A DNA stretch of 58,289 nt from Candidatus Zixiibacteriota bacterium. Its GTDB lineage: Bacteria > Zixibacteria > MSB-5A5 > UBA10806 > 4484-95. Location of the stretch: positions 1-58,289 of the forward strand of contig JAOZPT010000010.1 of assembly GCA_029932605.1 (NCBI GenBank), in the 5' to 3' direction. This document shows, piece by piece, positions 3,273 to 29,161 of this stretch (positions within the stretch are counted from its first letter, which is position 1; each line of letters opens with the position of its first letter). The position numbers and the translations under genes are program-made. The notes below the pieces were generated by a model. That model was not told the DNA's origin and did not search any database. It saw only the letters and a list, made by a program, of their open reading frames with translations.

Positions 3273-3285
3273 CAGATTCGCCAGT

Positions 3286-3588
3286 TTACCATTTCATCAG
3301 GTTAACGTCATCAACGTTGATACTTTCTTTAACCCTGAATATCGAGACGATGATAGCCAAGCCCACCGCTACCTCAGCAGCTGCTATAGCCATCACCAAA
3401 AACACAAAGACCTGTCCCGAGAAATCTTTCAAGAAACTCGAAAAAGCCATCAGGGTAATGTTAACAGCGTTTAACATCAGTTCTATTGACATAAAAATAA
3501 TTAGGGCGTTACGGTTTCTTAAAACACCCCATACACCGATAGTAAAGAGCATTGCCGATAATATGAGATAATAACTTAAAGGCGCCAT
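3286..3588 (-). CDS. nuoK: NADH-quinone oxidoreductase subunit K
   Basis: 100 aa, three TM helices, [11 protein letters not shown] and [12 protein letters not shown]. Confidence 0.98.
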
Positions 3589-3591
3589 AAC

Positions 3592-4092: not shown

Positions 4093-4098
4093 AATAAT

Positions 4099-5612: not shown

Positions 5613-5613
5613 C

Positions 5614-9764: not shown

Positions 9765-9768
9765 ATCG

Positions 9769-11462: not shown

Positions 11463-11938
11463 TAATTTGCCCTCAGTTTTTCGTTTTTGATTTTTTCATG
11501 AAGCTTTAAGATACCATCTATCAACTGCTCGGGTCGAGGTGGACAACCGGGTATATAGATATCCACCGGCACTACTTTATCGACTCCCTGGACAATAGCA
11601 TAGTTATTGAATATTCCGCCAGAGGATGCGCAGGCCCCCATGGATATGACATATTTGGGATTGGGCATCTGCTCGTATAGGTGTTTTATGACCGGCGCCA
11701 TCTTGACTGAAAGCCGTCCGGCTACTATCATCAAGTCTGCCTGACGCGGTGATGACCTCATTACCTCCATGCCGAATCGAGCCAGGTCATACCGTGAAGC
11801 AAAAGTGGCCATCATTTCAATAGCGCAGCAGGCCAAACCAAACCCCAATGGCCAAACTGATGACCTACGTGCCCAGTTTACCATTTTTTCCATAGTAGTC
11901 AACAGAATACCCTCGGGGATATATCTTTCTATTCCCAT
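11462..11938 (-). CDS. nuoB: NADH-quinone oxidoreductase subunit B
   Basis: [40 protein letters not shown]. Confidence 0.98.
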
Positions 11939-12285
11939 TTAAGCACCCCTTTACCAACGATATAAAAGAATCCAAGAAGTAAAATCAAAATGAAAAGTCC
12001 CATTTCAAATAAGCCGAAAAGCCCAAGGTCCTTATAAATTATAGCCCAGGGATAAAGAAAAACCACCTCAAGGTCAAATACGACAAAGGCAATGGCGATC
12101 AAGTAAAATTTGATTGGAATGCGCTCTCTGGCGTCGGTTTGGGGAATCAGGCCGCATTCATAAGGAGAATATTTTCGCTTGCTTTTAGTTTTGGGACCTA
12201 AAATCTCAGGCAAATAGAACATTATTAAAACAGTTAATACGGCAAAAAAAGCTAATACAAATATTGGAAACAAGGTCTCAAACAT
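11929..12285 (-). CDS. nuoA: NADH-quinone oxidoreductase subunit A
   Basis: [28 protein letters not shown]. Confidence 0.97.
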
Positions 12286-13716: not shown

Positions 13717-14703
13717 TTAAAAAATTATTCGATTTTCAGGGGAATAAATTTCCATATTTTTTCGCCACCATCTATCAAATTTCGGAATGTAAAAATACAC
13801 AGGTATAGCAAGCGCCCAACCAGCTATCAGGTCGATGATATAATGGTGGCGAAGGTAAACCGTGGATAAAAACAAACCGATGCAAAATGGAAGCATCAAC
13901 CAAAACGTTATCTTCGTATATTTCCAGGCGAACATCAAAGACAATAATGTCACGGCAGCATGCAACGAGGGAAAAGCGCACCGTGATTTACTTGGTAAAA
14001 CGCTCATAACTTTCAGAGCAACATCGGATATAGGCGTGCCGTCAAAATTGACCGTAAACATATGAACAAGGGTATGACGTGGAGGTGCTGCGGGGAATAT
14101 CACATAAAGGATGTAACCGCAATAAAAACACAATATCACGGTTACCAGTGTCTCCCGAAATTCCCTTTTCCTTCCCTGGACAATTAAAACCAATGCCACA
14201 ACCGGAGCAAACAGAAAAAATACCATGTAGCAAAAGGAAAATATCTCCGTCAGCCAGGGTTGGATGAACTTTTGTACCCAGACACACGGTTGACACCCAA
14301 AGAGCCACTGGTCAATAGCGATAAGGCTGTCATGGATATCATGAGGATTGGCAAAATGGACGGTATCATGAAGGTTGGTGTAAATTGCCAGGCAGTAAGC
14401 AAGTGGCAAAATGTCTCGTAGGAAAGACCAGCCTGAGCGAAAACGAGCGATTAAATAGGTTGCGATGATAACTATAACTACCACTGCTAACCTCTGCATA
14501 TCACCGACAAATAATTTTGGTACATCTCCTTGAGATTCGAAGAAAAGGTACGCTTTGATAGTCAGGTAAGCCATCGGAAAAAAAGCTATCAAAGCAATAA
14601 ACTCCTCCAGTCTAAAGGAAAATACAAATCTTTTGAAGGCGATATAGAATTTACGGCAATGATTTACCTTTTCAGCTTCAACCTTTTCTTCGGTTTTTAA
14701 CAT
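13717..14703 (-). CDS. PAP2-superfamily membrane phosphotransferase/phosphatase (AUR1/PAP2_3-like)
   Basis: Multiple TM helices; YVIFPAAPPR, CAFPSLHAA, STVYLRHHYIIDL. Confidence 0.85.
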   Translation of the reverse strand: MLKTEEKVEAEKVNHCRKFYIAFKRFVFSFRLEEFIALIAFFPMAYLTIKAYLFFESQGDVPKLFVGDMQRLAVVVIVIIATYLIARFRSGWSFLRDILPLAYCLAIYTNLHDTVHFANPHDIHDSLIAIDQWLFGCQPCVWVQKFIQPWLTEIFSFCYMVFFLFAPVVALVLIVQGRKREFRETLVTVILCFYCGYILYVIFPAAPPRHTLVHMFTVNFDGTPISDVALKVMSVLPSKSRCAFPSLHAAVTLLSLMFAWKYTKITFWLMLPFCIGLFLSTVYLRHHYIIDLIAGWALAIPVYFYIPKFDRWWRKNMEIYSPENRIIF

Positions 14704-14904: not shown

Positions 14905-15300
14905 TTACTTCAACAGGAGCATCTTTCTTGATTGAGAAAATTCACCGGCAATTATCCTGTAAAAATACACTCCTGAAGGAACATCATCAGCATTACAGAT
15001 CACCTGATGGTATCCCGATGGCTGTTGTTTATTAACAAGCGTTTCAATTTTGCGGCCGAGAATATTATATATATCGATAGTCACCTGAGCGACATTCGGT
15101 AAATCATACTTGATTTTGGTCTGAGCATTGAAAGGATTAGGAAAGTTTTGTGATAAATAATAATCAACGGGGATTTGATGATCTCTATAAACTATTCCCA
15201 CTTGAATTGAATCACCGCCGCCATAAGCTCCCATGTCGCTTAATATCGTACCCAAACCCCATAAACTATCCAACATACTATCTACGATATCCGGATGGCC
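14905..15300 (-). pseudogene. 5'-truncated secreted-protein gene retaining a T9SS type-A-like C-terminal sorting domain
   Basis: Frame reads GHPDIVDSMLDSLWGLGTILSDMGAYGGG then LSQNFPNPFNAQT...IYNILGRKI...PSGVYFYRI...KMLLLK. No signal peptide; in-frame stop shortly upstream. Confidence 0.7.
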
Positions 15301-15423
15301 TTCTTTGTTTTTGATTATTATACTAAAAAGAGGAAATCACTCAATCTTTTCTACCGCTAAAAGTCCATTTTTAATTTAGGCAAAAAAGATTTTATAACTT
15401 CGAATGTGGACAGGAAAGGATTT

Positions 15424-16296
15424 TTACATCCCTTTTGCTGATAATACTACAAAGACCGTTTTCAGGATTATTTTAAAATCCATTAAAATTTTCAAATTTC
15501 GAATGTAGTCGATATCATATTTGACCTTAAGCCTCACATCATCCTCAGATTCATCATACTTATGTTCAACCTGTGCAAGACCAGTTAGTCCGGGCTTAAC
15601 CAGAAGACGTTTTTCATAATTATCAATACTGTTTTTAAGCTTTCTTATAAAGAATTCTCTCTCTGGTCTAGGCCCCACCAAGCTCATATCACCTTTTAAT
15701 ACATTAAATAACTGGGGTATTTCATCGATACGCGTAGCTCTTAAGAAAGCACCTATTCTGGTAATACGTGGGTCTTTTTTCTTTGCCCAAACAGGCCCGG
15801 AGGTTTTCTCAGCATACCGATGCATTGTCCGAAACTTAATAACCATAAACGGTTTGCCAAAGCCAGCTTTTTTACGGCGGTCGGCCATCCCCATCTCTTT
15901 CTGAACTTTAATATTCAAACGGCGACGATTTATACCAATCCTCTCCTGACGATAAAAAACTGGTCCCGGTGAATCCAGCTTAATCAATATCGGAATTACT
16001 ATGAAAAATGGTACTGTCAAAATAAGACCAATAAAAACCCCAACAACATCAATTATACGTTTAATTGCCCATCTGAAACTATAAGCATTAAACGATTTCG
16101 TGATGGATAAAGGCTTAAAAAGAGATATCCTTTTAATAACATTAAAAACAAAAACTAAATTTTTTATTAAACATCCAGCCCAAAAAGCTTTGAGCCAGTT
16201 TATAAAATTATTCCAATATCTTGAAAATCCACCGCAAACTAAAACCTCTTCCCAATACTGACAAAATGGATTTGCAACAGGACTTTGATATCTCAC
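15424..16296 (-). CDS. Priming sugar transferase (polyprenyl-phosphate hexose-1-phosphate transferase family)
   Basis: KRIID, IKLDSPGPVFYRQERIG, KFRTM, DPRITRIGAFLRATRIDEIPQLFNVLKGDMSLVGPRPE, VKPGLTGLAQV; GTG start with AAGGAG SD. Confidence 0.93.
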   Translation of the reverse strand: MRYQSPVANPFCQYWEEVLVCGGFSRYWNNFINWLKAFWAGCLIKNLVFVFNVIKRISLFKPLSITKSFNAYSFRWAIKRIIDVVGVFIGLILTVPFFIVIPILIKLDSPGPVFYRQERIGINRRRLNIKVQKEMGMADRRKKAGFGKPFMVIKFRTMHRYAEKTSGPVWAKKKDPRITRIGAFLRATRIDEIPQLFNVLKGDMSLVGPRPEREFFIRKLKNSIDNYEKRLLVKPGLTGLAQVEHKYDESEDDVRLKVKYDIDYIRNLKILMDFKIILKTVFVVLSAKGM

Positions 16297-16348
16297 ACCT
16301 TCTCCTTAACATAAGTTAATAACATTCATCATTAAAATTCAATATTAC

Positions 16349-16363
16349 GCAAATTATATGCCA
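16349..16363 (-). promoter_or_regulatory. sigma54 (-24/-12) promoter of the priming sugar transferase
   Basis: Minus strand TGGCATATAATTTGC (GG-N10-GC), about 50 bp upstream of the start codon, in a 260-bp AT-rich intergenic region. Confidence 0.8.
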
Positions 16364-16557
16364 CCAAGACCATAATTAAAAAAAAAGAAACATAAAAGAG
16401 TAAAACGTAAAATATTACATAACACATTGTGATACGGGTTGTTAGCAGAGAGTGATGTTTATTATAAGATATTTATAAAGTTCTTTTTGATTATTAATTA
16501 TTGCAGCAATTAAAGATATATTAATCTAATGCATGAGTTTTCATAATGTATGCAATA

Positions 16558-17265
16558 CTATTCACCTTTCCCCCCTGCTTTTTTATGGTAATACTTATAA
16601 CCATAATACTTTGAACTATAATAGAATGGCAGAACAGAATCAAAATCATTTATAACTGCCCCAAGGATTTTGATGTTGGAATTAATTAACAGGTTAGTGG
16701 TTCTCTTGACAACCTCTTTTTTAGTTGTTCCTGCTTTGATAACCAGCAGAACTCCATCAACCTCGCTGGCTATTAAAAGGGGATCTGATACAGGAATAAC
16801 TGGCGGTGCATCTATAATTATAAAATCAAAGTAAAATTTGAGTTCCTCAGTTACTTTTCTTATGTTTTCCTGATTAAAGATCAAAGTAGGGCTTTCACTT
16901 ATTCTACCAGCAGTAATTATCTTCAAACCGGAAATAGAAGTATCTTTAATAGTCTTACCAACTTTGCACTTCTTTTCAAGTATATCAGACAAACCTTTCT
17001 CGAGGGGAAGCTTAAAAAGTACATTTATCATTGGTCGGCGCAAGTCAGCATCTAAAAGAAGCACTTTTCCCTCTTTAGCCTCGGCCATAGTTATCGCCAG
17101 AAACGATGATATCAGGGATTTTCCCTCCTCGATGGTCGAAGATGTTACAAGCACTGATTTTAACTGGTCATTGTCAGATTTCTTTATATTCGAATACAAA
17201 CGTCGAAACTCCGTTGCCTCCGGTGATTCCATATCATAAAAGCTGGCAATTGATTCAATTTTCAT
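16558..17265 (-). CDS. CpsD/CapB-type bacterial tyrosine kinase (cytoplasmic Wzc domain)
   Basis: EFRRL, Walker A TSSTIEEGKS, LLLDADLRRP, IIIDAPP, C-terminal Tyr cluster FYYSSKYYGYKYY. Confidence 0.93.
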   Translation of the reverse strand: MKIESIASFYDMESPEATEFRRLYSNIKKSDNDQLKSVLVTSSTIEEGKSLISSFLAITMAEAKEGKVLLLDADLRRPMINVLFKLPLEKGLSDILEKKCKVGKTIKDTSISGLKIITAGRISESPTLIFNQENIRKVTEELKFYFDFIIIDAPPVIPVSDPLLIASEVDGVLLVIKAGTTKKEVVKRTTNLLINSNIKILGAVINDFDSVLPFYYSSKYYGYKYYHKKAGGKGE

Positions 17266-18374
17266 TTTAAAATAGCCTTCAAAAGTGTTTTTAACCCCTT
17301 CAGTTCATTTTGTATAAGCTTCAAGTTTTTCATGGCAGTTTTATATTCAGGATTGATCTTCAAAGCTTTCTGGTAAGCCTCGACAGCATGCTGACTATAA
17401 AGTTGTGCCATAACAGCATATGCCATTCCTAAATCATTATAAAGGTCCGGATAGTTTGAGTTGATCTCAAGAAGTTTTTGTATTTTTTTAATATGATTTA
17501 CCACGACCTCTTTACTTAAGTGACCATTACTTAATAAATACTCAAGATGAAAATAATAATTATTTTTGAGAAATTTCCCTCTTATCGTCTTATCATAACC
17601 CTTACTTAAAACCTTAAAAGCACCATCAAGGTCCTTACTTTTTAAGGCGTTGAGCCCCTGCTGAAAATATTCATTATTAAGGGTTGAATTAAAACCTACC
17701 GATTTTCTCAGAAGCTTTATCGCGTTTTCCTCAAGGTTCTGGGCAAGGTCATAGTCATCTTTTTTTATGCCATTTAATATTATGGCCAGGGCGAGATTGT
17801 AATAAGCTTCACCATAATATATATTAAGATCGATAGCTTTCTCGAAGCTTTTCGACGCCTGATAACACTTACCCTGCTTTAAAAGCACCGTACCAAGATT
17901 GTTGTGGTAATCCGGGAAATCAGGTTCCATCTCAACAGCCTTTATTAGATATTCATGAGATTTCTGATAATCCTCAAGCACTATACATGTAAAACCAAGA
18001 TAATTATACAAACGTGAATTTCTGGCATCCAGCTTTATAGCTCTATTGAGTATCTCTAAAGCTTCCTTATACAATTTCTGGTCTAAAAGGGACACCGCCA
18101 GCATCTCCAACACAGCGACGTCGGTTTCATCCTCCATTTGTTCATAAAATTGGCTAAGGCGTTGTAGCCTTTCATAATGGGCATTGTGGTATTTCTCCAG
18201 GATATTAATGGCCTTATCGTTATTACTTAATAACTTAAACTTCACCAAATTGATGGGGTTGCCACTTTCATAAAGAACGCAGGTTCCCATACTTGTATCA
18301 GGGTTAGCTGAGGTTTGAAGGAGAAATTCCTTGCCCATCCCTTTTAGTTTGTCAGATAACGTTAATTGTTTCAT
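17262..18374 (-). CDS. Cytoplasmic TPR-repeat protein
   Basis: TPR signatures such as PDFPDYHNNLGTVL, YGEAYYNLAL, YPDLYNDLGMAY, ALKINPEYKTA; no signal peptide. Confidence 0.85.
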   Translation of the reverse strand: MKQLTLSDKLKGMGKEFLLQTSANPDTSMGTCVLYESGNPINLVKFKLLSNNDKAINILEKYHNAHYERLQRLSQFYEQMEDETDVAVLEMLAVSLLDQKLYKEALEILNRAIKLDARNSRLYNYLGFTCIVLEDYQKSHEYLIKAVEMEPDFPDYHNNLGTVLLKQGKCYQASKSFEKAIDLNIYYGEAYYNLALAIILNGIKKDDYDLAQNLEENAIKLLRKSVGFNSTLNNEYFQQGLNALKSKDLDGAFKVLSKGYDKTIRGKFLKNNYYFHLEYLLSNGHLSKEVVVNHIKKIQKLLEINSNYPDLYNDLGMAYAVMAQLYSQHAVEAYQKALKINPEYKTAMKNLKLIQNELKGLKTLLKAILK

Positions 18375-18380
18375 GAAAAA

Positions 18381-19967
18381 TCAACCATTTTTAAATCTCA
18401 TAAAAATAATCACTACTGCCAAAATCAGGCATAGCAATACCCCCAAAAATATAAAACCCCTGCCTTTCTTTTTAGAATAGTAAGGAATTGATATGCGTGG
18501 TATTATCGCCAGAACCGGTATATTAAGGTAATTCTCGACATCCTCAACTTTTTTAAAAGAATCATCAAAATACTCAATTAACAGTATTGCTCCAAATCCT
18601 ACCATAATCCCGAGAACAAGACCCATGAATACTATTTTCTTGCGGTTGGGGCTTGTCGGTACCATCGGTAAAACAGCTGGTTGTATTATCATATACTTAG
18701 ACCGAGCCTCTATCTTCTTAGCGCTTTGTTCAATCGCTGCATATTGTGAATGCTGAACAAACAAGTTATAAAGTTCCCTGTATCGGTTCACCTCGGACTG
18801 AAGCCTTTCAAGAGTTATTTCGATATCAGGATTGCGTGTTAATCTCGATTTAATTCTACCGAGGCTCTGCTCCAGAGCTGACCTCTTGGCCTGAGTAAAC
18901 TCAATTTTCATCTCCAGAACAAGATAACGAACAATATCATCCCGAATATCATCGGGATATTCCTTGAAGACCCTGCCAACATAATTTATGATTTCACTTT
19001 CAATGGAGGCAAGCAGGTCTTTGGCATCTTTATTCAGCGCTATTACTTTAGCGTTACGCCAGTTATGACGGCTTAGAAGGTCAGCCAGTTTATCATTTGT
19101 ACTCATCAATTCATTTTTCAGTCTGACAATATCATTCTGTTGTTGAATAGTAGAAACATCGATCTTCTTTGAATATAAAATATACCTTAGGTCTGTCATC
19201 TCCTGTTGTGCTTCATCTATCTCGATATCTAAAGCCTCGATCACAGAAAGTATCGAATTCAAATTAAGGTTTAATACTTCTGCATCTCCATCAACTGAAG
19301 TTGTAATCATTTGCTGCCTGAACTTTTTCAGCTTATCCTCCGCTATACTTAGTTTTTCTTGATACACATTCAATTGGTCTTCAGTAAAAGAGATACTTCC
19401 TTGAATGCCAGCTAACTCCTGAGCAAGATTTTCTTCGAGGAATATTTCAGCCAATGTTTGTGTCATTTTCCGAGCCATAGTTGGTGAACTGGAAACTGCA
19501 GATATTCTGATTATATTAGAGCCCTCCATTCGCACATCTATTCTTTCACGAATCGAGGAAACCAAAAGGTTATCAGTAAGTTCAGCTGCGGAAACATCTG
19601 GCATATTCTTAATCTGTTCAGCTACGGCCTCTTTTATGGCCTTAGGTATAGGGATGTTAAGTTTGGCAATGAGGCATTTGATGTATTTCGTGGATCGAAT
19701 CTGATTGTATAGAATATTACGGATATCACTTGGGGAAAGCCTTCGCATCTGGTTTGCAGACTCAAGGCTTCTCTGAACTGTCGGCGGAAGGATATTGGGT
19801 TCATTTATCAAAATAGAGGTTGATGATTGATACTTCGGTGTCATAAAGAAAGTAACCAGAATAGCAGCAAGGGGAACGATGATAGCCGGCATAATTAAAA
19901 GCCATTTTTTCTTTAACAATATTTGCCAGTAATCCCTTATATTTATATTCTGGTAAGCCTCAGCCAT
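18381..19967 (-). CDS. Polysaccharide co-polymerase / chain-length determinant (Wzz/GumC family)
   Basis: N-terminal INIRDYWQILLKKKW plus TM and PKYQSSTSILI; long coiled coil; IIQPAVLPMVPTSPNR-TM-EYFDDSF...LNIPVLAIIP. Confidence 0.9.
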   Translation of the reverse strand: MAEAYQNINIRDYWQILLKKKWLLIMPAIIVPLAAILVTFFMTPKYQSSTSILINEPNILPPTVQRSLESANQMRRLSPSDIRNILYNQIRSTKYIKCLIAKLNIPIPKAIKEAVAEQIKNMPDVSAAELTDNLLVSSIRERIDVRMEGSNIIRISAVSSSPTMARKMTQTLAEIFLEENLAQELAGIQGSISFTEDQLNVYQEKLSIAEDKLKKFRQQMITTSVDGDAEVLNLNLNSILSVIEALDIEIDEAQQEMTDLRYILYSKKIDVSTIQQQNDIVRLKNELMSTNDKLADLLSRHNWRNAKVIALNKDAKDLLASIESEIINYVGRVFKEYPDDIRDDIVRYLVLEMKIEFTQAKRSALEQSLGRIKSRLTRNPDIEITLERLQSEVNRYRELYNLFVQHSQYAAIEQSAKKIEARSKYMIIQPAVLPMVPTSPNRKKIVFMGLVLGIMVGFGAILLIEYFDDSFKKVEDVENYLNIPVLAIIPRISIPYYSKKKGRGFIFLGVLLCLILAVVIIFMRFKNG

Positions 19968-19968
19968 A

Positions 19969-20925
19969 TCAATAATACCTTCTTATTATTATTGCTGTTG
20001 CTATTGATGTTACTAAACCTGGGATAATATATTCTGGAAGTCTTGACCAGAACGTTCGTTCTCGTCGAAAAGGAATTATTATTGTATCCTCCGGATGAAG
20101 TTTATACCTGGCAGGTTGTCCCTTTTTGATATATTCATCAAGGTTAAAACTTAAAACCGATGAATATTTCACATCTTTCATCACAATACTTATATTCTTA
20201 GTATCAGATAACTCGGTAATACCTCCAGCAGCGGCAATGGCGTCAACAAGTTCAAGGTTTTCAGAAAGGTTTTTGACACCGGGGTCATTTACAGCGCCAT
20301 AGATGAAATAAACATTTTTCCCCTTAAAGGTGGGACCAACAAGTAGTTCTGTTATCCCCCCATATGGAGAAACAGGAATATTTATCATGTCTTTGGCCTT
20401 TAGTTGTGGAAGACCAGCAAGGTCACCCTTGCGGAGGTGGTCAAGCACATCAACTTCTATAATCTTTGCCTTGTTATCCTCCTGGCGAATTATAGTAACC
20501 CTTGAAAGGTCAGCTGAGGAAGTGGCGCCACCAGCTTGGCGAATGACATCTAAAAGATTGGGGATTCGCTCAAAATGATATTCACCCGGCTCGTTTATCT
20601 CGCCAGATAACACAACGGTTTGGCTATTATACTCGGTCACAACAACGGTCGCCTGGGAAATCCTTGGATTATAAAATGAAACCTGTTCAACTATAGATTT
20701 GGATAGTTGATTTGTTGTAAGCCCAGCTGCTTTAATATCACCGATAATCGGTAGTGTTATTATACCATTTTCATTAACCCTGACTTCCGTATCAAGGTCT
20801 GGTTCTTGCCAGAAGCTTATACTTAATCGATCACTTACACCGATTTTGTACGGCTGATAATCCTGAGCAAATGATAACGCCCAACAGGCCAACATAATCA
20901 CAACTATTTTTTTATATGTCTTCAT
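19969..20925 (-). CDS. Polysaccharide export protein (Wza/Poly_export with SLBB domains)
   Basis: Signal peptide, YKIGVSDRL, GIITLPIIGDIKAAGLT, two SLBB repeats (GEINEPG...AGG; GAVNDPG...AGG). Confidence 0.9.
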   Translation of the reverse strand: MKTYKKIVVIMLACWALSFAQDYQPYKIGVSDRLSISFWQEPDLDTEVRVNENGIITLPIIGDIKAAGLTTNQLSKSIVEQVSFYNPRISQATVVVTEYNSQTVVLSGEINEPGEYHFERIPNLLDVIRQAGGATSSADLSRVTIIRQEDNKAKIIEVDVLDHLRKGDLAGLPQLKAKDMINIPVSPYGGITELLVGPTFKGKNVYFIYGAVNDPGVKNLSENLELVDAIAAAGGITELSDTKNISIVMKDVKYSSVLSFNLDEYIKKGQPARYKLHPEDTIIIPFRRERTFWSRLPEYIIPGLVTSIATAIIIRRYY

Positions 20926-22681
20926 ATATCCCTTTATCGGTTAATTGATGTTGAGAATTTCTCTTTAATTCCTCATCCTCCAACATCGAGCTGTTAAACA
21001 TCATCGAACGATTTCGCCCCTCGGCCTTAGCTTTCAATAAAGCCATATCAGCACAATATATCAAACGGTCAACTGTCTGGGCATCACTTGGATATATTGC
21101 ACCCCCTATTGAAATAGAGATTTTATACCCACCATCAACATACCCACTTACAAATTTGTAATTTTCAATTCTTTTCCTCAATCTCTCAACAAATATAAGA
21201 CAGTTAGCAAAACCTGTATCAGGCATAATTACACAAAACTCCTCGCCACCATAACGGCTTACTATGTCGATAGCCCGAACACTCCTGGTAACCAAAACCG
21301 CTAGATTTTTAAGCACCTCGTCGCCTGCCTGATGACCATAGGTGTCGTTGAAGGTTTTGAAATTGTCAATATCAAATATAACCATCGCCAACATCCGATC
21401 AAAACGTTTTGCTCTAAATATCTCCTCATTGAGCCGTTTGTAAAAATATCGGTAATTGTAAAGTTCGGTCATACTATCCGTATATGACATTTTCTCAATC
21501 AACCTGTATTGCTGGATATTACCAATAGCCAGTGATGTCATATTTGACATGGTTGAAAATACCTCAAGGTCAGCCTCGGTATAGCTTCCCTTTCCACTTT
21601 TATCCCCAATTAAAACAAATCCATATATCTTCCCACCAACATAGAGTTTTTCGATATGAGTAAACCCGAAGGCTAATGCCTTTTCCATAAAAGGATCACC
21701 GCTTTGTAAACCAGAGCTTACAACGGGCAAGACCATAACACGTTTTTTAGCTGCTAACAACTTGTATATTTCAGAGCCAGTAAGAAGTTCAAGCATCTGA
21801 ACATCGCGGGTAACCTGGCCGCTGGAGGCAGCGATTGTAAAAATACCGCTATCACTTTTACTTCTTCTTAAAATAGCTATACGTGAAGGTGAGAGAACCG
21901 AAGCGATAGAATTTAAATAAGTTTCTATGAGGCGGTGCTCATCGTAAATAGTAAATATCCTGTTGGAAATATCGAGAAACGAATGTAAGTTGAAATCTTT
22001 TTGTTTTACCTTGCTGTTTAAATTGGTTATTTCGATTTTAACCCTGTTCAATTCTTTTTCAAGGTCTCTAATTTTTTCCTGCCGCCTTTTGATGTTATTG
22101 TTACTGTGACATATCTCGTATAACAACGGCCAAACCGCCTGATTGAACTCATCGGATGCACAAAAGCGGGTTAGCTCTTTATGAGGATCTTCTCCCGCAA
22201 ACAAAACCCGTTGTTCGCTAAACTCATACAAAAAAAACAACAAATTCGAAATATCACTAGGAAGATCTGCCAAACGAGAAATCATTTTAATCTCATTTTC
22301 ACCCAAGACCACACCACAACCAGGATATTTCCCCCTGCGATTATTTGAATTTGATGAAAGCAAGAAGTTATTCACAAGTTCGATTCTAATCGGCTTTATC
22401 ATTCTCAATCTCAGCCCCACGCCCATCAATGGCAACAATATATTCCGTTCTGAACAAAACAACACAAAACGACCGAGTTTGAAATCTTTTTTAAAAGCCT
22501 CGGCAGCAATTAACACGGGGCTTTTTCGAGACTTACAGCGTACCGAGTTAAAAACCGACCGACAAACCTCGAATACTTTTTGTTTTATGGTCAGCTCGGA
22601 ACCCTTCTTGTACAAATCCATAGTTATTTTGCGAGTTTTCATTCGATGCTTACCAACCAATAAAACAACGGTAAGAATCAA
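20912..22681 (-). CDS. GAF-GGDEF diguanylate cyclase with N-terminal membrane anchor (start uncertain)
   Basis: TDSMTELYNYR, FDIDNFKTFNDTYGHQAGD, I-site RAID five residues before GGEEF; upstream GAF region and coiled coil. Confidence 0.92.
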   Translation of the reverse strand: MILTVVLLVGKHRMKTRKITMDLYKKGSELTIKQKVFEVCRSVFNSVRCKSRKSPVLIAAEAFKKDFKLGRFVLFCSERNILLPLMGVGLRLRMIKPIRIELVNNFLLSSNSNNRRGKYPGCGVVLGENEIKMISRLADLPSDISNLLFFLYEFSEQRVLFAGEDPHKELTRFCASDEFNQAVWPLLYEICHSNNNIKRRQEKIRDLEKELNRVKIEITNLNSKVKQKDFNLHSFLDISNRIFTIYDEHRLIETYLNSIASVLSPSRIAILRRSKSDSGIFTIAASSGQVTRDVQMLELLTGSEIYKLLAAKKRVMVLPVVSSGLQSGDPFMEKALAFGFTHIEKLYVGGKIYGFVLIGDKSGKGSYTEADLEVFSTMSNMTSLAIGNIQQYRLIEKMSYTDSMTELYNYRYFYKRLNEEIFRAKRFDRMLAMVIFDIDNFKTFNDTYGHQAGDEVLKNLAVLVTRSVRAIDIVSRYGGEEFCVIMPDTGFANCLIFVERLRKRIENYKFVSGYVDGGYKISISIGGAIYPSDAQTVDRLIYCADMALLKAKAEGRNRSMMFNSSMLEDEELKRNSQHQLTDKGIYEDI

Positions 22682-22762
22682 AGCAACAACTGCTAAAATA
22701 CAAACCAGTAATATTAATCTAAAATCAGGCGTAAGATCCTCTTCTACTTTTAAATATTATAT

Positions 22763-23563
22763 CTATTTTGAAATATTCCGGGTTCGTGCAAAATAAAACC
22801 TTTTTTTCTTAGATCCAAGGCCTGATTTTTTTAATGTCCACCAGACTTTGAAAAACCCCGTTCCCGGAAAATCCTTTTTAATTTCTTTTTTAATTTCAAC
22901 AACGCTGAGAAATGGGTCTTTCCCTACCAGCTCTAATATAGCTTCTTTAAGCGTCCTGGCCACTCTGGGGACATCACGTTTTACGCGAGAATGTTCACCT
23001 TTAGGAAAATCTAACTTGGAATCCCTGCTACGTTCTTTTGGCAAAGTTGCCCCAGCCAGTTTGTCGGAAACATCCCGGTCCCCAGAAACAGCTGGCTTAG
23101 CCGATGATCCCTGAACCCTAACATCAGGTGAAACCTTTCCTGATATCGGTATCGGTTCCGGTTTTTTAACCTCGTGTAATCTCAGCCCATTCTGCGGTTC
23201 ACCGGCAAAATCAGCCTTGGCTTTTTCTATGTTATCATATGCTTTAAGAATGCTGTCGAACTCCAATAGTTCGAAAATCTCATAAACATTGGGTATCATT
23301 CGAGCAAGTTTAATATCGCCATCGTTCAAGCGTATCTCTCTGATGTTTGAGATAAAAATACCCCAACCGGCTGATGAAATATAATCGACACCACCGAGGT
23401 CAACAATAATTTTGAATTTCTTTTGAGCAAGAAGAGAGTTTGTAACCTCTTCCAACTGCGTAGCAGTCATTGTATCGATTACTCCATCTACACGGATAAT
23501 GGTGATTTCACCATCAATCTGTGTTGTCTGGGTTGTTTCTACGGAAATTTTGATATCGCTCAT
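22763..23563 (-). CDS. STAS (anti-anti-sigma) protein with linker and C-terminal HTH-like domain
   Basis: STAS motif IIVDLGGVDYISSAGWG with phospho-acceptor Ser; low-complexity linker; basic helical tail ILELVGKDP...LKKSGLGSKKKRF. Confidence 0.88.
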   Translation of the reverse strand: MSDIKISVETTQTTQIDGEITIIRVDGVIDTMTATQLEEVTNSLLAQKKFKIIVDLGGVDYISSAGWGIFISNIREIRLNDGDIKLARMIPNVYEIFELLEFDSILKAYDNIEKAKADFAGEPQNGLRLHEVKKPEPIPISGKVSPDVRVQGSSAKPAVSGDRDVSDKLAGATLPKERSRDSKLDFPKGEHSRVKRDVPRVARTLKEAILELVGKDPFLSVVEIKKEIKKDFPGTGFFKVWWTLKKSGLGSKKKRFYFARTRNISK

Positions 23564-23566
23564 CTT

Positions 23567-24310
23567 TTACCTATCCAATCGTTCCAATGCCTCTTTGGAA
23601 AAATGATAATAATCATACGCACCATTAGAATATGGAGCGTATTCAAATATGGTTTTATTATTCATCTGCGACTCTTTTATCTGGGTGTTGACCCTGATAG
23701 CTGTCGTAAAGACTTTTTCATCGTACCTTTCTTTCAAATTACTCAGTATCTTTTTTGAAATCCTAGTCCTTACATCAAAAAACGTCGGCAAAATACCGAG
23801 CAGTTTTATATCTCTACCCATTTCAGAAGTTACCTCATCGATTATCTTCAGTGTTAATGCCGCTCCCTCCAAAGCGAAATAGTCCATTGACACGGGAAGC
23901 AAAACCTTGTCGATATAATACAATATGTTTGAATTTATTACATTTATCGACGGGGAGCAATCTAAAATTATTATTTCAATACCGGTGAATCTATTCAATG
24001 CCATAGCTAACGGGTATTCGCTTTCGGGTTGTTGGGCCAAGTAACGTTCCACCATATAAATATCGCTTTTGCCAGAACCCACGAGATAAAGGTCTGGACG
24101 AATATTATAAATATCCACCTTATCGCATAAGAGAAGGTCTGATAATCCCTGGGCTCCATTCAAATCAAAAGCTAAGGAGGTCGAACCTTGAGCATCACAG
24201 TCAATCAGCAATGTTTTCCTGCCCATCATGGCCAGGGCATGGGCAAAGTTAATGGCCGTAGTGGTCTTACCGGTTCCCCCCTTAAAAGCTGTAACTGCTA
24301 TCTTGTGCAT
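23567..24310 (-). CDS. ParA/Soj family ATPase (no parB in the window)
   Basis: Deviant Walker A KGGTGKTT, LLIDCDAQG, IILDCSPS, ILPTFFDVRTR, IFEYAPYSNGAYDY. Confidence 0.92.
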   Translation of the reverse strand: MHKIAVTAFKGGTGKTTTAINFAHALAMMGRKTLLIDCDAQGSTSLAFDLNGAQGLSDLLLCDKVDIYNIRPDLYLVGSGKSDIYMVERYLAQQPESEYPLAMALNRFTGIEIIILDCSPSINVINSNILYYIDKVLLPVSMDYFALEGAALTLKIIDEVTSEMGRDIKLLGILPTFFDVRTRISKKILSNLKERYDEKVFTTAIRVNTQIKESQMNNKTIFEYAPYSNGAYDYYHFSKEALERLDR

Positions 24311-27120
24311 TATTTATTGAACTTTTCAGTTAATCTCTTCTCGTATTCTTTAAAATCGCTTAAAACATTCTTTGGACTATTTCCTTTAATGGCTTTTTCT
24401 CTAATATCGATTTTTTTACCACTTATCCCATCCGCCTTGATGGGTTTTATAATTTGTTTATAACCAGGTTCTTGTTTGGAAGTTTCATCTTTTTTTGAGG
24501 TTAAGCCTTCATTCATCTTGGATACTACCGACTGCAACATGCAAGCGATCTCCTTGCCTCCTTCAAGCTCCTCAAGTTCCTTGGCAATTTCATTATAAAT
24601 GTCATTCCCGCTAACAGTTGGACCGATCTGCTTTAATTGTGAGATTATTCTTCCAGTCTCCCTCGTGATCCTTTTTACCTCGCGGCTTTCGATATTCTTC
24701 TTTAAATCTTCCGTATATTGCATTCTATCAAGTCTCTTACGTTCTTCACGTAACATCTCTTTTTCCAAAATTTCTTTTTGTTCCGGTTTAAGTTTGCCAA
24801 CTCTCTCGACATAAGCCAAACGACGTCTGCGTGTATTAAGTCTCATATTTACCAACTCATCATAGATGTTCCCAACCGAGTAGTTCTCTCCTCGTTTGGC
24901 AAGCGTTTTCTGAATTCTGGTTGCCCCAAATTCAGGATTTTGTCTAATGATTTCAAGTATCATTTTACGTGTGTTATATGGCAGAATTTTAATAGAAGCC
25001 TCGGCCCTCAACCTTTTATTCAGAAGCCCTGAGTCACCATGTTCTTTCCATCTTTTGCGATACTTATAAAAAGACGCCAGAGAAACTCCCACCTTTTTAC
25101 AAGCCTCTTCCGCCGACATCCCCTCATCCTCGACCATTTTCAACAAGCGTTTGCGCTTCTCAAGTATAAGCTCGTCAACCATTATTTTTTCCTTTATCAC
25201 CACCAGAGTGATATCATCATTCTGGGGAGCATTTCCGGTAAACTGAACGATGTCTTTGTCAAGAGCGGTAGCGAACTCCTCAGGTGATAAGTGAGCGTTT
25301 TCCTTTATAAAATTGATCAGCCTGTCATTACCATATTGCTCGGATCTGTTGTTCATCGCCTCGGTTATTCCATCAGTGTAAACCACAAGCATGTCATCTT
25401 TTTTCAATTTCAGCTTATCGGTTTGAATGCTTCCTCCAAATGAAACATCATCGGGCAGAGTTAAGCCAAGAGGCATTCCTTTCGGGTTTAGGAAGTAACA
25501 TTTAGCAGTATCCTTACGATACAGAATCATCGGATTATGTCCAGCTGAGGCGAAAGATATCTGGCGGTTTTTTGAATCAAGAATCATGAAAAATATCGTA
25601 ATAAACATCCCCTTTTTCACATCCTCGGCTACGAAATCATTAACTTTGGCCAGGATATCATTCGGCGAGTGGTTATCTCTTGCCTCGAGTCTCAAGGCAG
25701 TGCGAATCATTGTCATAACCAGTGACCCCGGAACCCCCTTACCGGAAACATCGGCTACAGCTATTCCAAGCGAGTGTTCATCAATCCACACGAAATCAAA
25801 ATAATCGCCTCCGACATCCTTTGCTGCCCGATATATTGCAGCAAGTTCGTACCCCTCTATCTCAGGGAAACGTGAAGGTAACAAAGCATGCTGAATATCC
25901 TGGGCAACCTGCATTTCCTTTTGCAAACGTTCCTGTTCGACTATATTCGCCTGGGCTGATTTGAATTTAAGGGTGATCTCGTTAAAAGCGCGGGCAATCT
26001 CCGAAAACTCGTCCGAACCATCAACCGGCAAGGTTTCCTCAAGGTTGCCCTGGCCTATTTTCAACACACCCTCGGTGAGTTTCTGAATTGGCTTTACAAA
26101 ATAGTAAGAGAGAAGGTAAACAGCTCCCAAACCAACTATAAGTCCCAAAAAGGCGATAACAAGTAGAACATTTCTTGCCTTGATAAGCTGGTTAGAAAGA
26201 ACAGCTTGAGAAAAGCCGAAGTTAATCTTACCTAACTTTTTATTATTCTGTACCATATCTGTTATTAAATGATAAATATTCCCATATTCTTCACTTTCAT
26301 AATATTGAAATGTATCGGTAATGGCCGAATCTATGGTTGGAGGATAACTATATGGTGATAAAATACTCTGCGGTCTTAAGGCATCAGCCCAGATTAAACC
26401 ATTCCTGTCAACAACTGTGATATATTTCAAATTGGGATTACCTTGTAAAGCCAAGCTAACCAAAGCTGATAGTTCAAGTTCGTTACCAACAACCATTTTA
26501 TCCGCTGAATTCAAAGTGGTGGTGTTAGCGAAATTTCTGGCTTCGGAAAAGAAACGTTCTTTGATAGAATCAGCATTTCTACCGTTGTAATAAAAGAATA
26601 TCACTCCAACAATCACAAAAACCACCAACGAAGCCCACATGGCGAATTTCAGGCGTATGGAGGTTCCTCTGGGTTTTAAGATTATCGGTTTTTTAGGGGG
26701 TACTTTCTTAACCATGCGAAGTTCATTTTCACCATCGCGGGAAAAATAATCTACGGAATCCATTATCTTGCGGATAAGATACAACCCCAATCCACCTTTC
26801 CTGCCGGTCTTGATATAGCGGTCAAGATTCGGGGAATCAGCACGATTGAAATCAAACCGCCGTCCCTTATCGTAAATGGAAAATACGATCTTATCCGGAA
26901 ATATTTTTAATTTTATCCTTATGGTTCCAGGGCCGTAAAGGTAAGCGTGGCGTATTACGTTGGTGCAGGCCTCTTCAACAGCCAAAAGGATGCCATTTCT
27001 TTCCTTATTGCTTACATTTACATCGACAATGGCATCTTTAACTGACCGACGGATATCCTCCAGCATGTTCTCATCAGCTACAAAGCTCATGAATATCTCT
27101 ATCGGTTTTCTAAATGCCAC
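24310..27120 (-). CDS. Hybrid membrane signalling protein: RsbW-like kinase, 2TM sensor, HAMP, SpoIIE/PP2C phosphatase, tandem HTH
   Basis: Kinase: EEACTNVIRHAY, DKG, GGLGLYLI. Two TM helices, then HAMP (KPIQKL...DEFSEIARAFN). PP2C: VGGDYFD, ADVSGKG, SAGH, YTDGITEA, DDITL. Then HTH region. GTG start with GAGGTGG SD. Confidence 0.9.
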   Translation of the reverse strand: MAFRKPIEIFMSFVADENMLEDIRRSVKDAIVDVNVSNKERNGILLAVEEACTNVIRHAYLYGPGTIRIKLKIFPDKIVFSIYDKGRRFDFNRADSPNLDRYIKTGRKGGLGLYLIRKIMDSVDYFSRDGENELRMVKKVPPKKPIILKPRGTSIRLKFAMWASLVVFVIVGVIFFYYNGRNADSIKERFFSEARNFANTTTLNSADKMVVGNELELSALVSLALQGNPNLKYITVVDRNGLIWADALRPQSILSPYSYPPTIDSAITDTFQYYESEEYGNIYHLITDMVQNNKKLGKINFGFSQAVLSNQLIKARNVLLVIAFLGLIVGLGAVYLLSYYFVKPIQKLTEGVLKIGQGNLEETLPVDGSDEFSEIARAFNEITLKFKSAQANIVEQERLQKEMQVAQDIQHALLPSRFPEIEGYELAAIYRAAKDVGGDYFDFVWIDEHSLGIAVADVSGKGVPGSLVMTMIRTALRLEARDNHSPNDILAKVNDFVAEDVKKGMFITIFFMILDSKNRQISFASAGHNPMILYRKDTAKCYFLNPKGMPLGLTLPDDVSFGGSIQTDKLKLKKDDMLVVYTDGITEAMNNRSEQYGNDRLINFIKENAHLSPEEFATALDKDIVQFTGNAPQNDDITLVVIKEKIMVDELILEKRKRLLKMVEDEGMSAEEACKKVGVSLASFYKYRKRWKEHGDSGLLNKRLRAEASIKILPYNTRKMILEIIRQNPEFGATRIQKTLAKRGENYSVGNIYDELVNMRLNTRRRRLAYVERVGKLKPEQKEILEKEMLREERKRLDRMQYTEDLKKNIESREVKRITRETGRIISQLKQIGPTVSGNDIYNEIAKELEELEGGKEIACMLQSVVSKMNEGLTSKKDETSKQEPGYKQIIKPIKADGISGKKIDIREKAIKGNSPKNVLSDFKEYEKRLTEKFNK

Positions 27121-27146
27121 TTTACCACCTCACATTTTGCTTTAAA

Positions 27147-27175
27147 ATTATAGGCCAAATGTTGCCCAAAGTAAA
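27147..27175 (-). promoter_or_regulatory. sigma70-type promoter of the signalling/EPS operon
   Basis: TTTACT (27175-27170), 17 bp spacer, TATAAT (27152-27147). Confidence 0.65.
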
Positions 27176-27186
27176 GCTAAATTCAG

Positions 27187-27221
27187 TTGAAATCATTATT
27201 TCAAATGCCAACCTATTTCAA
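27187..27221. promoter_or_regulatory. Candidate operator: TTGAAAT-N4-ATTTCAA palindrome plus an extra half-site
   Basis: Perfect 7-bp inverted repeat at 27187-27204 and a third ATTTCAA at 27215-27221, directly upstream of the -35 box. Confidence 0.5.
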
Positions 27222-27340
27222 CAAGCCAGCCTTATTAAATTTGTTACTACCCTTTTATATGTTATCGAACATCCCCACCCGAACATTTCTAAAAAGCAAA
27301 GATTATTAAACATATATTTATCGGGAAGACTGTTTAAGTA

Positions 27341-29161
27341 TTACTTTTTTAAAGACCTTGCCCTAGCCTGCTCGATATTTCGTATCAGGTTAGGGTTATT
27401 TGGATAATAATCTAATAGTAAGCGCCACAGATCAAGTGCCTTATCATACTCGCCGGCTTGATATTTCTCCATACCCTGGATATATATCCGCCAATGTTCA
27501 TCATTTGCCTTGATATCCTCTAAAGTTGTTTGCTTGGTCATATATTGTGCAAGCCGGCGTTTGAGGCTTATTGCACCCTCCGACCGAGGATTTAAGATTA
27601 ATGCCGAGTCAACCTGGACCGCAGCACTTTCATATTCACCATCGTTGAACATTCGTATCGCCTTATCAAGATATTTTGACGATTCAAACATTCGATAAAC
27701 CTCTGCCTGATTCCGGATCGCCCAACTATCGTCAGGAACAACATGCAGGATTTCATTTAAAACTGCAATAGCGCGTTCGTAATCTCCGTTTTGTATATAC
27801 TCTGCAACTAGGCGCCTTTTTCCAGTAATTTTGTCTTCATTGATCTTTTCTATATCCGCAAGCATTCTAATCGCCTCCCGGTTCTCAGGATCAATAATTA
27901 ACGCTAACTCAAATTGCTCAGTCGCCTTATCGTATTGCTTCTTATGATAATAGTTGTTTCCAAGTTGTATTTGCTTATCAACCAAGTTACTGATATAATC
28001 CTTACCAACCTGCTTGGCCATCTCTTCTTTCATTTTATTAAGCAACTCCAAAACCTTAACCCGGGCCTGACTGTTCTGGTCATCTAAACCCAACACTCTA
28101 TAATATGCCTCGATCGCTTCATAGGTTTTTCCGTTCTGCTCATGCTTGGTGGCGATGGCAAGCTCTTTTTGTATTTTTTTAATAACTTCTTGTTCCTGTT
28201 TTTGTTTAAACTCCATTACTTTCTCATTCGCTATGGCCTTCTCTCTTCGCTCTCTTTTAACCTCAATCGGTGTACCAAAATCGATGCTCAATGACAACCT
28301 ATGCGATGTTCCGAGGTCTGAAAGAGTTGCATAAGCATAATCAAATCTGAAACTGTAATATGAAACTCCCGCGCCAATAGTAATCTTATCCCCCATATAC
28401 CCAAGGCGGGCAAAAACCATATCTTTAACACCAAGCTCGCAACCAGCATAAACATCCGTCTCATTGTTTTCCGTTTTCTCGACATCGGCACTAATCAAAA
28501 GCCCATATTTACCGGAAAACGCTTTCGAATATGATAATCCGCCCCTGATTGACCAGGGAAATCTTTGTTCCAACCTGTGAAGTTTGATACGAGGACCACT
28601 CAGGTCAGACAGTTTCAAACCAAAAGAAGTCCCTTTTAAGAATGGAAGAAAATAAATTATACCCAAATCTAAACCGAAACCGGTGTCTTTATAATCCTCG
28701 ATATCGAAATAAACACCTTTAACGGTGATTCCCGCCAATATTTTTCTCGTAGGTGAAAAGCCATAACCAAGCAAAAACAAGTCCTGGCGACTGGAAAATG
28801 TGCCGTTTGTTGCATAATCAACAATTTTGTCAAAATCATCACTTGAAATATCTCCAATACCTAACCCAAAACCTCCGGCCATGGTGGGATAAGCAACTGA
28901 TAGAAACTGATATCGGGTATCCATAAACAAACTCATGTGGAATAACTGCACCTGTGGTCGCTGTAATACAGCCAGACCGGCCGGGTTCCAATATACCGCT
29001 CCAGAACTGTTAATGAAAGCAACCGAAGCTCCTCCCATACCAAGTTGTCTAGCGCCTACACCAACGGCAAACGGTGATCGATATCCCCCATCATTAGCTA
29101 TGGCAATGGCTGAAACAAACAAAACTGTAATGGTCATGAATAATCGAGATTTTCTTACCAT
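27341..29161 (-). CDS. PorV/PorQ-family outer-membrane barrel fused to a C-terminal coiled-coil/TPR region
   Basis: Signal peptide, GVGARQLGMGGA...AVYWNPAGLA, barrel end FDYAY...LGTSHRLSLSIDFG, then about 310 aa of TPR-like helices. Confidence 0.85.
   Translation of the reverse strand: MVRKSRLFMTITVLFVSAIAIANDGGYRSPFAVGVGARQLGMGGASVAFINSSGAVYWNPAGLAVLQRPQVQLFHMSLFMDTRYQFLSVAYPTMAGGFGLGIGDISSDDFDKIVDYATNGTFSSRQDLFLLGYGFSPTRKILAGITVKGVYFDIEDYKDTGFGLDLGIIYFLPFLKGTSFGLKLSDLSGPRIKLHRLEQRFPWSIRGGLSYSKAFSGKYGLLISADVEKTENNETDVYAGCELGVKDMVFARLGYMGDKITIGAGVSYYSFRFDYAYATLSDLGTSHRLSLSIDFGTPIEVKRERREKAIANEKVMEFKQKQEQEVIKKIQKELAIATKHEQNGKTYEAIEAYYRVLGLDDQNSQARVKVLELLNKMKEEMAKQVGKDYISNLVDKQIQLGNNYYHKKQYDKATEQFELALIIDPENREAIRMLADIEKINEDKITGKRRLVAEYIQNGDYERAIAVLNEILHVVPDDSWAIRNQAEVYRMFESSKYLDKAIRMFNDGEYESAAVQVDSALILNPRSEGAISLKRRLAQYMTKQTTLEDIKANDEHWRIYIQGMEKYQAGEYDKALDLWRLLLDYYPNNPNLIRNIEQARARSLKK

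Follow-up and report, generated by a model that had tools for sequence, protein, structure and literature searches.

What does a serine kinase/phosphatase switch control when it stands at the head of a set of exopolysaccharide (EPS) export genes? The question is raised by positions 15424-27120 (minus strand) of contig JAOZPT010000010.1 (GCA_029932605.1), a 58,289-nt stretch from the metagenome-assembled genome of a Candidatus Zixiibacteriota bacterium; the whole stretch is referred to below as the window, and all features are on its minus strand unless indicated otherwise. The domains of the window's open reading frames (ORFs) were assigned by Pfam and NCBIfam profile searches. Nine co-oriented genes run from a hybrid sensor through a ParA/MinD-type ATPase, a STAS protein, a diguanylate cyclase, the export proteins Wza and Wzz, a TPR protein and a bacterial tyrosine kinase (BY-kinase) to a priming transferase. 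The first eight genes overlap or are separated by at most ~80 nt, and a gap of 261 nt lies between the BY-kinase and transferase genes. A preliminary description, made from the letters of this DNA only, had reported eight closely spaced genes followed by a transferase and had read them as a kinase/PP2C/STAS partner switch ahead of a cyclase and EPS export genes; both the array and its composition were confirmed.

From gene position and by analogy with known systems, we propose, with slightly less than even confidence, that the locus encodes a membrane partner switch in which the state of the STAS protein controls the adjacent cyclase and hence EPS export in Zixibacteria. Our confidence is held at this level because the cyclase is missing from the conserved core of the locus in other phyla.

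A Hybrid Sensor Carrying a Kinase and a Phosphatase

Three components of a partner switch are present: an RsbW-type GHKL kinase, a PP2C/SpoIIE phosphatase and a single STAS antagonist with an acceptor serine. The first two are joined in the hybrid sensor (24310-27120; 936 aa), which was delineated by Pfam, NCBIfam, an alignment of 20 orthologues and hydropathy. From its N-terminus, it comprises an RsbW-type serine kinase, a first transmembrane (TM) segment, a periplasmic Cache-like domain, a second TM segment, HAMP, PP2C, a double helix-turn-helix (HTH), a coiled tail and a C-terminal motif. The RsbW/SpoIIAB-type kinase domain (aa 14-138; 26707-27081) scored 92 bits against HATPase_c_2 (cut-off 27.4), and its closest solved chain is RsbW (6m36_A). 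Its N box (E49, E50, N54, H58), G1 (D84, G86) and G2 (G109, G110, L111, G112) residues are invariant in 20/20 orthologues. HAMP (aa 337-381) and the PP2C/SpoIIE phosphatase (aa 448-643), together at 25192-26112, scored 44 and 177 bits, respectively, in Pfam. The PP2C residues D439, D442, D457, G460, D583, G584, D635 and D636, in which the aspartates are metal-binding, are likewise invariant in all 20 orthologues.

Hydropathy places TM1 at aa 159-177 (26590-26646) and TM2 at aa 318-336 (26113-26169), enclosing a putative periplasmic sensor loop of ~140 residues (aa 178-317; 26170-26589). As there are two TM segments and HAMP follows immediately after the second, both the kinase and the PP2C are predicted to be cytoplasmic, flanking the periplasmic loop. 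The preliminary description of a 936-aa protein with an intact kinase and an intact PP2C on the cytoplasmic side of a two-TM sensor thus agrees with the conservation of the catalytic residues. The loop gave a weak match to sCache_3_2 (E 0.0084, below cut-off), PF17203 is precomputed on many sensor orthologues and reaches 27.9 bits in one relative (locus L048), and the loop is the least conserved portion of the 20-orthologue alignment. No receiver domain (Response_reg) was matched in the sensor by Pfam, the input being formed instead by the two TM segments and HAMP. Among the best 120 sensor matches listed, all have SpoIIE and HAMP and nearly all also have HATPase_c_2 and an HTH family; the names that the database gives to sensor matches are Zixibacteria.

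The STAS Protein and Its Pairing with the Sensor

The STAS protein (22763-23563; 266 aa) is encoded two genes downstream of the sensor. Its STAS domain (aa 14-115; 23219-23524) scored 66.5 bits in Pfam, and the protein exceeded the NCBIfam ant_ant_sig cut-off (61.8 bits against 53.45). In a phmmer alignment, Ser64 (23372-23374) falls under the first serine of the SpoIIAA 'DSSG' motif, which we take to be the phospho-acceptor, making Ser64 the putative acceptor here. The segment that holds it, VDYISSAGWG, is invariant in 16/16 orthologues, in keeping with the earlier claim of a STAS protein with its acceptor serine near the sensor gene. SpoIIAA bound to SpoIIAB (1thn_B) was the best Foldseek match of the predicted STAS fold, with a TM-score of 0.87. 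In the model of the whole protein, the predicted local distance difference test (pLDDT) is ~87 for the STAS domain, <50 for a disordered linker (aa 125-200) and 84-94 for a C-terminal domain (C-domain).

The sensor and the STAS protein very probably form a cognate pair, as judged from their adjacency across phyla and from gene fusions in three loci. In the latter (L035, L040 and L048, from another phylum-level lineage), the sensor orthologue includes three STAS domains within a single ORF and is followed by ParA. These sensors are ~1400-1470 aa long, with the STAS domains placed after the HTH; downstream of them lie ParA, a TPR370-like protein and two further single STAS genes.

The genome under study encodes three further STAS genes and two further RsbW-like kinases, each within a module of its own. 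One is a classical block at 45234-51069 (plus strand), comprising a receiver (REC) protein, a GAF-SpoIIE phosphatase (45708-47024), an RsbW-like kinase (47021-47446), a STAS protein (47463-47807), a second REC protein, a PAS histidine kinase and a sigma-54 activator. A third PP2C/kinase/STAS group of the same genome lies on another contig (C8).

The Diguanylate Cyclase, the Export Genes and a Proposed Mechanism

The predicted membrane-anchored GAF-GGDEF diguanylate cyclase has its canonical ORF at 20912-22681 and its GGDEF domain at 21008-21484 (aa 400-558; Pfam, 143 bits). It also matches TIGR00254 (173 bits, cut-off 37.4), and residues 226-559 give a DgcA-like GAF-GGDEF match in NCBIfam. The GGEEF motif and an RxxD motif five residues upstream of it (R469, D472) are invariant in 15/15 orthologues. 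On the N-terminus, Pfam gave weak matches only. The orthologues begin with one or two N-terminal TM helices, with an ATG ahead of the helix. A TM helix is also encoded in frame here, at 22682-22756, upstream of the called TTG start, and no ATG, GTG or TTG that would include this membrane anchor was found in frame upstream. The start region contains no indel in four independent assemblies, and the start codon may be non-canonical. Five GGDEF matches were found in the genome, two of them strong, with the cyclase of this locus among the two. Since the cyclic di-GMP (c-di-GMP) network of the genome is small, this cyclase is, on the profile matches, predicted to be a major c-di-GMP source.

The genes that follow include export components of the Wza-Wzc type: an outer-membrane Wza (19969-20925; Poly_export and SLBB in Pfam), a polysaccharide co-polymerase (PCP) of the Wzz/GNVR type (18381-19967; Wzz and GNVR in Pfam) and the BY-kinase (16558-17265), whose C-terminus carries a tyrosine cluster. 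The best NCBIfam families of the export genes are an XrtA/PEP-CTERM-type export set, all below cut-off, and eps_fam, which the BY-kinase matches above cut-off (TIGR01007; 169.8 bits, cut-off 108). The last gene (15424-16296) encodes a Bac_transf polyprenyl-phosphate glycosyl-1-phosphate (priming) transferase, with 217 bits for Bac_transf and 283 bits for EPS_sugtrans, just below the cut-off of 295.6.

Between the Wzz and BY-kinase genes lies the gene of a predicted cytoplasmic TPR protein (17262-18374; TPR in Pfam), which has no signal peptide and no TM segment. Its relatives come after STAS or ParA in other phyla, where EPS genes are missing, and for this reason it may be part of the switch and not of the export apparatus.

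In the mechanism that we propose, a periplasmic cue would be read by the Cache-like loop and relayed through HAMP, shifting the balance between kinase and phosphatase. Ser64 of the STAS protein would be phosphorylated by the sensor kinase and dephosphorylated by the sensor PP2C, and in one of its forms this protein would bind the membrane cyclase and alter c-di-GMP synthesis. This step is proposed because it is analogous to the pairs HsbA-P/HsbD, BgrV/BgrR and SiaC/SiaD: in the available text of the two sources, HsbD of Pseudomonas aeruginosa binds phosphorylated HsbA (PMC5085249), STAS proteins control the cyclases BgrR and HsbD, and SiaC activates SiaD (PMC8457831). The c-di-GMP would act through a receptor on the Wza/Wzz/BY-kinase machinery and favour polysaccharide export. 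The ParA-type ATPase would be docked on the C-terminal motif of the sensor, and the paralogous HTH modules of the sensor and the STAS protein would connect the complex with DNA, or connect with one another, which is the least certain part of the proposal. A complex prediction of the cyclase with STAS aa 1-125 scored 0.00 in both runs, which were made without controls, and it counts neither for nor against this mechanism.

Within Zixibacteria, the gene order is consistent with such a link. Of 40 genomes from relatives, 29 have an intact sensor orthologue; in 7 others it is interrupted at contig ends or breaks, and 4 have none, with matches at the PP2C level only. Synteny within the class was assessed in 20 loci fetched from relatives. 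The complete order sensor-ParA-STAS-GGDEF-Wza-Wzz-TPR-BY-kinase was found in 13 of these, and a fourteenth shows it as far as its contig reaches, to Wzz. Of the 20 loci, 14 have ParA between the sensor and STAS, 16 have an adjacent STAS, 15 have GGDEF after it and 9 have a transferase after the BY-kinase. The synteny in relatives that the preliminary description had named as a check on its reading was thus found.

Conservation across Phyla and a Possible Surface-Module Target

The cyclase as output, which the preliminary description had suggested as one option, is plausible by analogy; the linkage of the switch to a cyclase and to EPS genes is specific to Zixibacteria. A second set comprised 29 loci found on scanning a single genome for each species, taken where a tblastn alignment spanned the kinase to the PP2C; it covers Calditrichota, KSB1, Latescibacterota, Eisenbacteria, FCPU426 and others, as well as Zixibacteria. 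The sensor carries the HTH tail in 24 of the 29, and a STAS gene lies within 3 kb downstream in 23. A PorV-like/TPR gene stands directly upstream of the sensor in 26, and a relative of a 1960-aa protein is encoded upstream in 22. ParA was found in 6/29. Loci labelled as Planctomycetota have the parts as separate proteins, namely a HAMP-PP2C, a kinase and a STAS.

Several observations weigh against control of the cyclase and of export. GGDEF was found in only 4 and Wza in only 3 of the 29 cross-phylum loci, and beyond STAS the other phyla carry unrelated genes, of housekeeping or DUF type (aconitase, Obg, DprA, GltX, DUF4159/DUF4175). Since the sensor and STAS occur outside Zixibacteria mostly without a cyclase or EPS genes, the cyclase is not the expected ancestral target, and on this distribution the original output of the switch was probably not the cyclase. 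Even within the class, 4 of the 20 relatives' loci, all distant, have a sensor without an adjacent STAS. The genome holds a single PilZ protein, encoded away from the locus, and no c-di-GMP receptor was evident among the export genes. The cyclase has a GAF-like region of its own, through which it could be regulated independently. Apart from the priming transferase, no glycosyltransferase, Wzx or Wzy turned up in a scan that took in 41 of the window's 46 ORFs and was not extended to the rest of the genome.

On the gene neighbourhoods, the older conserved unit appears to be the giant surface protein, the PorV-like/TPR protein, the sensor and the STAS protein, with the cyclase and the EPS export genes as additions in the Zixibacteria lineage. 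Here, the co-oriented array extends upstream of the sensor to both surface genes. The first (27341-29161) encodes a PorV/PorQ-family barrel with TPR, above the PorV_fam cut-off (110.8 bits against 90). The second (29155-35037) encodes the 1960-aa protein, which has a weak FlgD_ig/type IX secretion system (T9SS)-type C-terminal domain (FlgD_ig, E 0.004; PorZ C-terminus, E 3e-4). An Atlas search with the latter protein returned only leads below 0.9, from FlgD_ig/Por_Secre_tail clusters.

This unit suggests another output, in which the target lies within the surface module and the switch controls the secretion, anchoring or assembly of the giant surface protein and the PorV-like/TPR protein, the cyclase and EPS genes being later neighbours that share a theme or a transcript. 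The rival outputs considered here are not mutually exclusive. The cross-phylum counts favour a surface-module target, with the PorV-like/TPR gene, the giant protein and STAS each far more frequent than GGDEF, as do the assignment to PorV_fam above cut-off, the TPR370-like gene that follows STAS or ParA in other phyla, and the position of the PorV-like/TPR ORF, which in several relatives overlaps the sensor start or ends within ~20 nt of it. However, in the family studied here the sensor gene has a conserved promoter-like motif of its own and is separated from the PorV-like gene by a 220-nt spacer, the cyclase follows STAS in 15 of the 16 Zixibacteria loci with an adjacent STAS, and the giant protein has weak family matches only. 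To our knowledge, no partner switch acts on a T9SS-type component, which we also count against this target. We consider a surface-module output unlikely for this locus, but less so than the other rivals. The cross-phylum link to the PorV-like and giant surface proteins points to an earlier function in the cell envelope.

The HTH Modules, the ParA-Type ATPase and a Possible Output at DNA

The transposase-type double HTH of the sensor (aa 655-778; 24787-25158) scored 34.8 bits for HTH_23 (cut-off 24.6) and 31.1 bits for HTH_32, the latter below cut-off, with these Pfam matches covering aa 655-753. Residues 655-766 match the N-terminus of the IS481 transposase at model positions 1-112 (E 2e-16). 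Pfam gave weak matches only on the last 156 residues of the sensor. The idea that a transposon insertion left the HTH tail behind was rejected, since there is no DDE domain and the tail is retained in 24/29 sensors across phyla.

The C-domain of the STAS protein (aa 205-265; 22769-22951), found by structure prediction and profile comparison, is modelled as a four-helix fold. A profile built from 22 C-domain sequences, including Calditrichota, matched the second HTH of the sensor (aa ~718-778) at an hhalign probability of 96.7% (E 3e-10) and did not match the first (2%). By this comparison, the C-domain and the second HTH of the sensor are paralogues. Pfam gave a non-significant HTH_Tnp_Tc3_2 match (E 0.027) on the STAS C-domain, and Foldseek returned nothing for it at E <= 0.001. 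All of its structural neighbours are HTH regulators, with middling scores below the trust level of the tool (NarL, Z 6.2; ArgR; Fur; Rv1846c, Z 6.0). The earlier proposal of HTH modules on both partners therefore stands on the paralogy of the C-domain with the sensor HTH, whereas a significant Pfam match to an HTH family was not obtained on the STAS protein. A C-domain profile search gave 457 representative clusters at E <= 0.001, many of them 85-110 aa long, and in one relative a stand-alone 88-aa C-domain gene follows a short STAS (L029:3517-3783; hhalign 99.1%). Because of this separate gene and the 457-cluster family, the C-domain is regarded, on sequence comparison, as an autonomous domain. 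Another 88-aa ORF follows the sensor gene in a second locus (L030:3181-3447), and the sensors of both L029 and L030 are without a tail.

The ParA/MinD-type ATPase (23567-24310; 247 aa), whose start overlaps the sensor stop codon, matches AAA_31 (110 bits) and CbiA and carries the deviant Walker A motif KGGTGKT. Its best NCBIfam families both fall below cut-off (BcsQ, 78 bits against 158; ParA_partition, 77 bits against 180), and no cognate ParB or BcsR/BcsE partner was found among the window ORFs scanned. The sensor ends in a motif, FKEYEKRL (aa 923-930; 24331-24354), that was identified by a regular expression applied to the last 45 residues. It was present in 18/18 sensors followed by ParA with a loose expression and in 17/18 with a strict one, compared with 0/18 sensors without ParA; the motif was defined post hoc from the same sequences, and about two lineages account for the 18 positives. 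The co-occurrence is therefore suggestive of an association between the tail motif and ParA and has no statistical weight, and the ATPase likely docks on this candidate docking peptide.

These features point to a further alternative, with DNA as the site of output: here the STAS protein would be a phosphorylation-gated DNA-binding factor, and the sensor HTH and ParA would tie the complex to the nucleoid, serving the transcription of EPS or surface genes or the placement of the complex in the cell. In its favour are the IS481 match of the sensor tail, the paralogy of the C-domain with the sensor HTH, the confident C-domain fold with HTH regulators as top structural neighbours, the persistence of the C-domain as a separate gene and a large family, the co-occurrence of ParA with the tail motif and the lack of a sigma factor gene in the operon. 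Nevertheless, the structural matches are middling (Z < 8), with Foldseek empty, and the promoter spacer shows no conserved palindrome apart from the -35/-10 motif. The C-domain was found in 6/29 cross-phylum loci by the tblastn criterion, which is an undercount, and many partners are without it; HTH folds can also mediate protein contacts. We consider an output at DNA rather improbable. A related and equally doubtful possibility is a ParABS-like device, in which the HTH modules, domesticated from transposases, and a dedicated ParA docked on the sensor tail would either place a local c-di-GMP source and the export machinery along the nucleoid, or make the STAS protein a DNA-binding regulator gated by phosphorylation. 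If true, such a device would be an undescribed kind of partner switch, common to several FCB-group phyla.

A classical anti-sigma switch, in which the membrane-tethered RsbW-type domain would sequester a sigma factor encoded elsewhere until unphosphorylated STAS frees it, is very unlikely: the RsbW/SpoIIAB type of the kinase domain and 13 Sigma70_r4 matches in the genome (three in ORFs of 264-487 aa) would allow it, but no sigma factor gene was found in or beside the locus among the scanned window ORFs, as the preliminary description had noted, nor, in ten other loci, among the scanned genes that lie downstream of the sensor, the 264-aa sigma ORF adjoins an FlhG-like ATPase match and the only PilZ gene and is probably flagellar, and the genome has two other, more classical kinase/STAS modules.

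Comparison with Known Systems

SypE of Vibrio fischeri is reported to combine an RsbW-type kinase and a PP2C in one protein and to set the phosphorylation of the STAS protein SypA within a polysaccharide locus, and it is said to have a receiver domain at its centre and to lack a sensor in the membrane. In contrast to the present locus, SypE/SypA has no cyclase, ParA or HTH. Rv1364c of Mycobacterium tuberculosis joins a PP2C, an RsbW-type kinase and a STAS domain in one chain, and PDB 3ke6 is among the closest solved chains. It resembles the three-STAS sensors of the relatives, whereas at this locus STAS is separate and no sigma factor is linked. Rv1364c is reportedly soluble, with PAS input and a link to sigma-F.

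HsbR is also said to be soluble, with receiver-domain input from a phosphorelay, whereas the present sensor has a two-TM Cache-like/HAMP input and an N-terminal kinase. According to the available text of PMC5085249, the HptB-HsbR-HsbA-HsbD system is similar in that HsbR joins a PP2C and an RsbW-type kinase acting on the STAS protein HsbA, with a nearby cyclase, HsbD, and with control of biofilm. HsbR/HsbA differs in having no HTH modules and no ParA gene, and HsbA also has an anti-sigma-related partner.

The SiaABCD genes of P. aeruginosa jointly encode a HAMP-PP2C sensor in the membrane, a kinase, the substrate that is phosphorylated and a cyclase that this substrate binds and activates, and SiaC is a DUF1987 protein rather than a classical STAS as here (PMC8457831, available text). 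The SiaABCD kinase is a separate protein. SiaA was the best NCBIfam family for sensor residues 306-641, and the locus scored far below the cut-offs of this system (SiaA, 87 bits against 700; SiaD, for the cyclase, 146 bits against 290). Nor does the SiaABCD operon contain HTH modules, a ParA gene or export genes.

In BgrSTUWV-BgrR of Sinorhizobium meliloti, the STAS protein BgrV controls the cyclase BgrR, which drives production of the mixed-linkage glucan exopolysaccharide (PMC8457831, available text). The kinase and phosphatase are separate, and the same text mentions neither a fused membrane sensor nor HTH modules nor a ParA (PMC8457831). In its logic the locus resembles HsbR/HsbA/HsbD, BgrSTUWV/BgrR, SiaABCD and SypE/SypA, yet it belongs to none of the four, as it has no receiver domain, its putative substrate is not a DUF1987 protein and its SiaA and SiaD scores are too low.

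For the ATPase, BcsQ of cellulose secretion and the ParA partition ATPases are the nearest families and share the deviant Walker A motif; its scores are below their cut-offs, and the candidate partner here is the sensor C-terminal motif, not ParB, BcsR or BcsE. The sensor double HTH resembles the IS481-family transposase N-terminus, the second half of which is copied by the STAS C-domain. The sensor differs from these transposases in lacking a DDE catalytic domain, and its module is fused to signalling proteins and conserved across phyla.

The preliminary description had called the switch undescribed. A literature search found no paper on the architecture or on c-di-GMP in Zixibacteria, within a coverage that left out supplements, subscription papers and the original Bgr paper. 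The principle of STAS control of a cyclase, on the other hand, is already known from HsbA/HsbD, BgrV/BgrR and SiaC/SiaD, and the novelty lies in the architecture: a fused TM sensor, transposase-type HTH modules on both partners and a ParA whose presence tracks a tail motif. Partner switches acting on c-di-GMP and the biofilm matrix are known from a few Proteobacteria, and the same logic would be found here in uncultured FCB-group phyla, built differently. The locus would offer a small, testable set of proteins for how the phosphorylation state of STAS is read without a sigma factor, and a handle on the regulation of attachment in vent and sediment Zixibacteria.

Promoter, Assembly and Neighbouring Genes

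A promoter-like pair, -35 TTTACT and -10 TATAAT, lies at 27147-27175; after it come GAGGTG and the GTG with which the sensor gene starts. It is the best consensus match of the region (10/12, at 27175-27147). The motif CTTTACwTT-17-TATAmT upstream of the sensor gene is invariant in 5/5 family relatives while the remaining spacer is not conserved, which fits a predicted promoter. A search of the promoter spacer in these 5 sequences for a conserved operator or palindrome found nothing beyond the -35/-10-like motif. This motif is the sole basis for the single promoter claimed earlier for the operon; the invariance of the pair argues for a promoter at this position, but the co-oriented array continues upstream of it.

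An assembly artefact was rejected, as contigs from four other, independent sequencing runs cover the locus and bridge the gene junctions without indels, mostly at >=99% identity. DNA near-identical to 15400-29200 (mostly >=99%) was found in hydrothermal vent, marine sediment and sediment metagenome runs from several studies.

Downstream of the priming transferase, a 123-aa ORF (14905-15276) is essentially one T9SS type A sorting domain (Por_Secre_tail, 45 bits). A row of nuo (complex I) genes occupies 1341-12285 and is separated from the EPS genes by the genes of a MiaB-like radical SAM protein (12413-13687) and a PAP2-family protein (13717-14703). Elsewhere in the window, a 650-aa protein (42836-44788) has a Porphyromonas-type peptidyl-arginine/agmatine deiminase domain that is confined to its first 355 residues.

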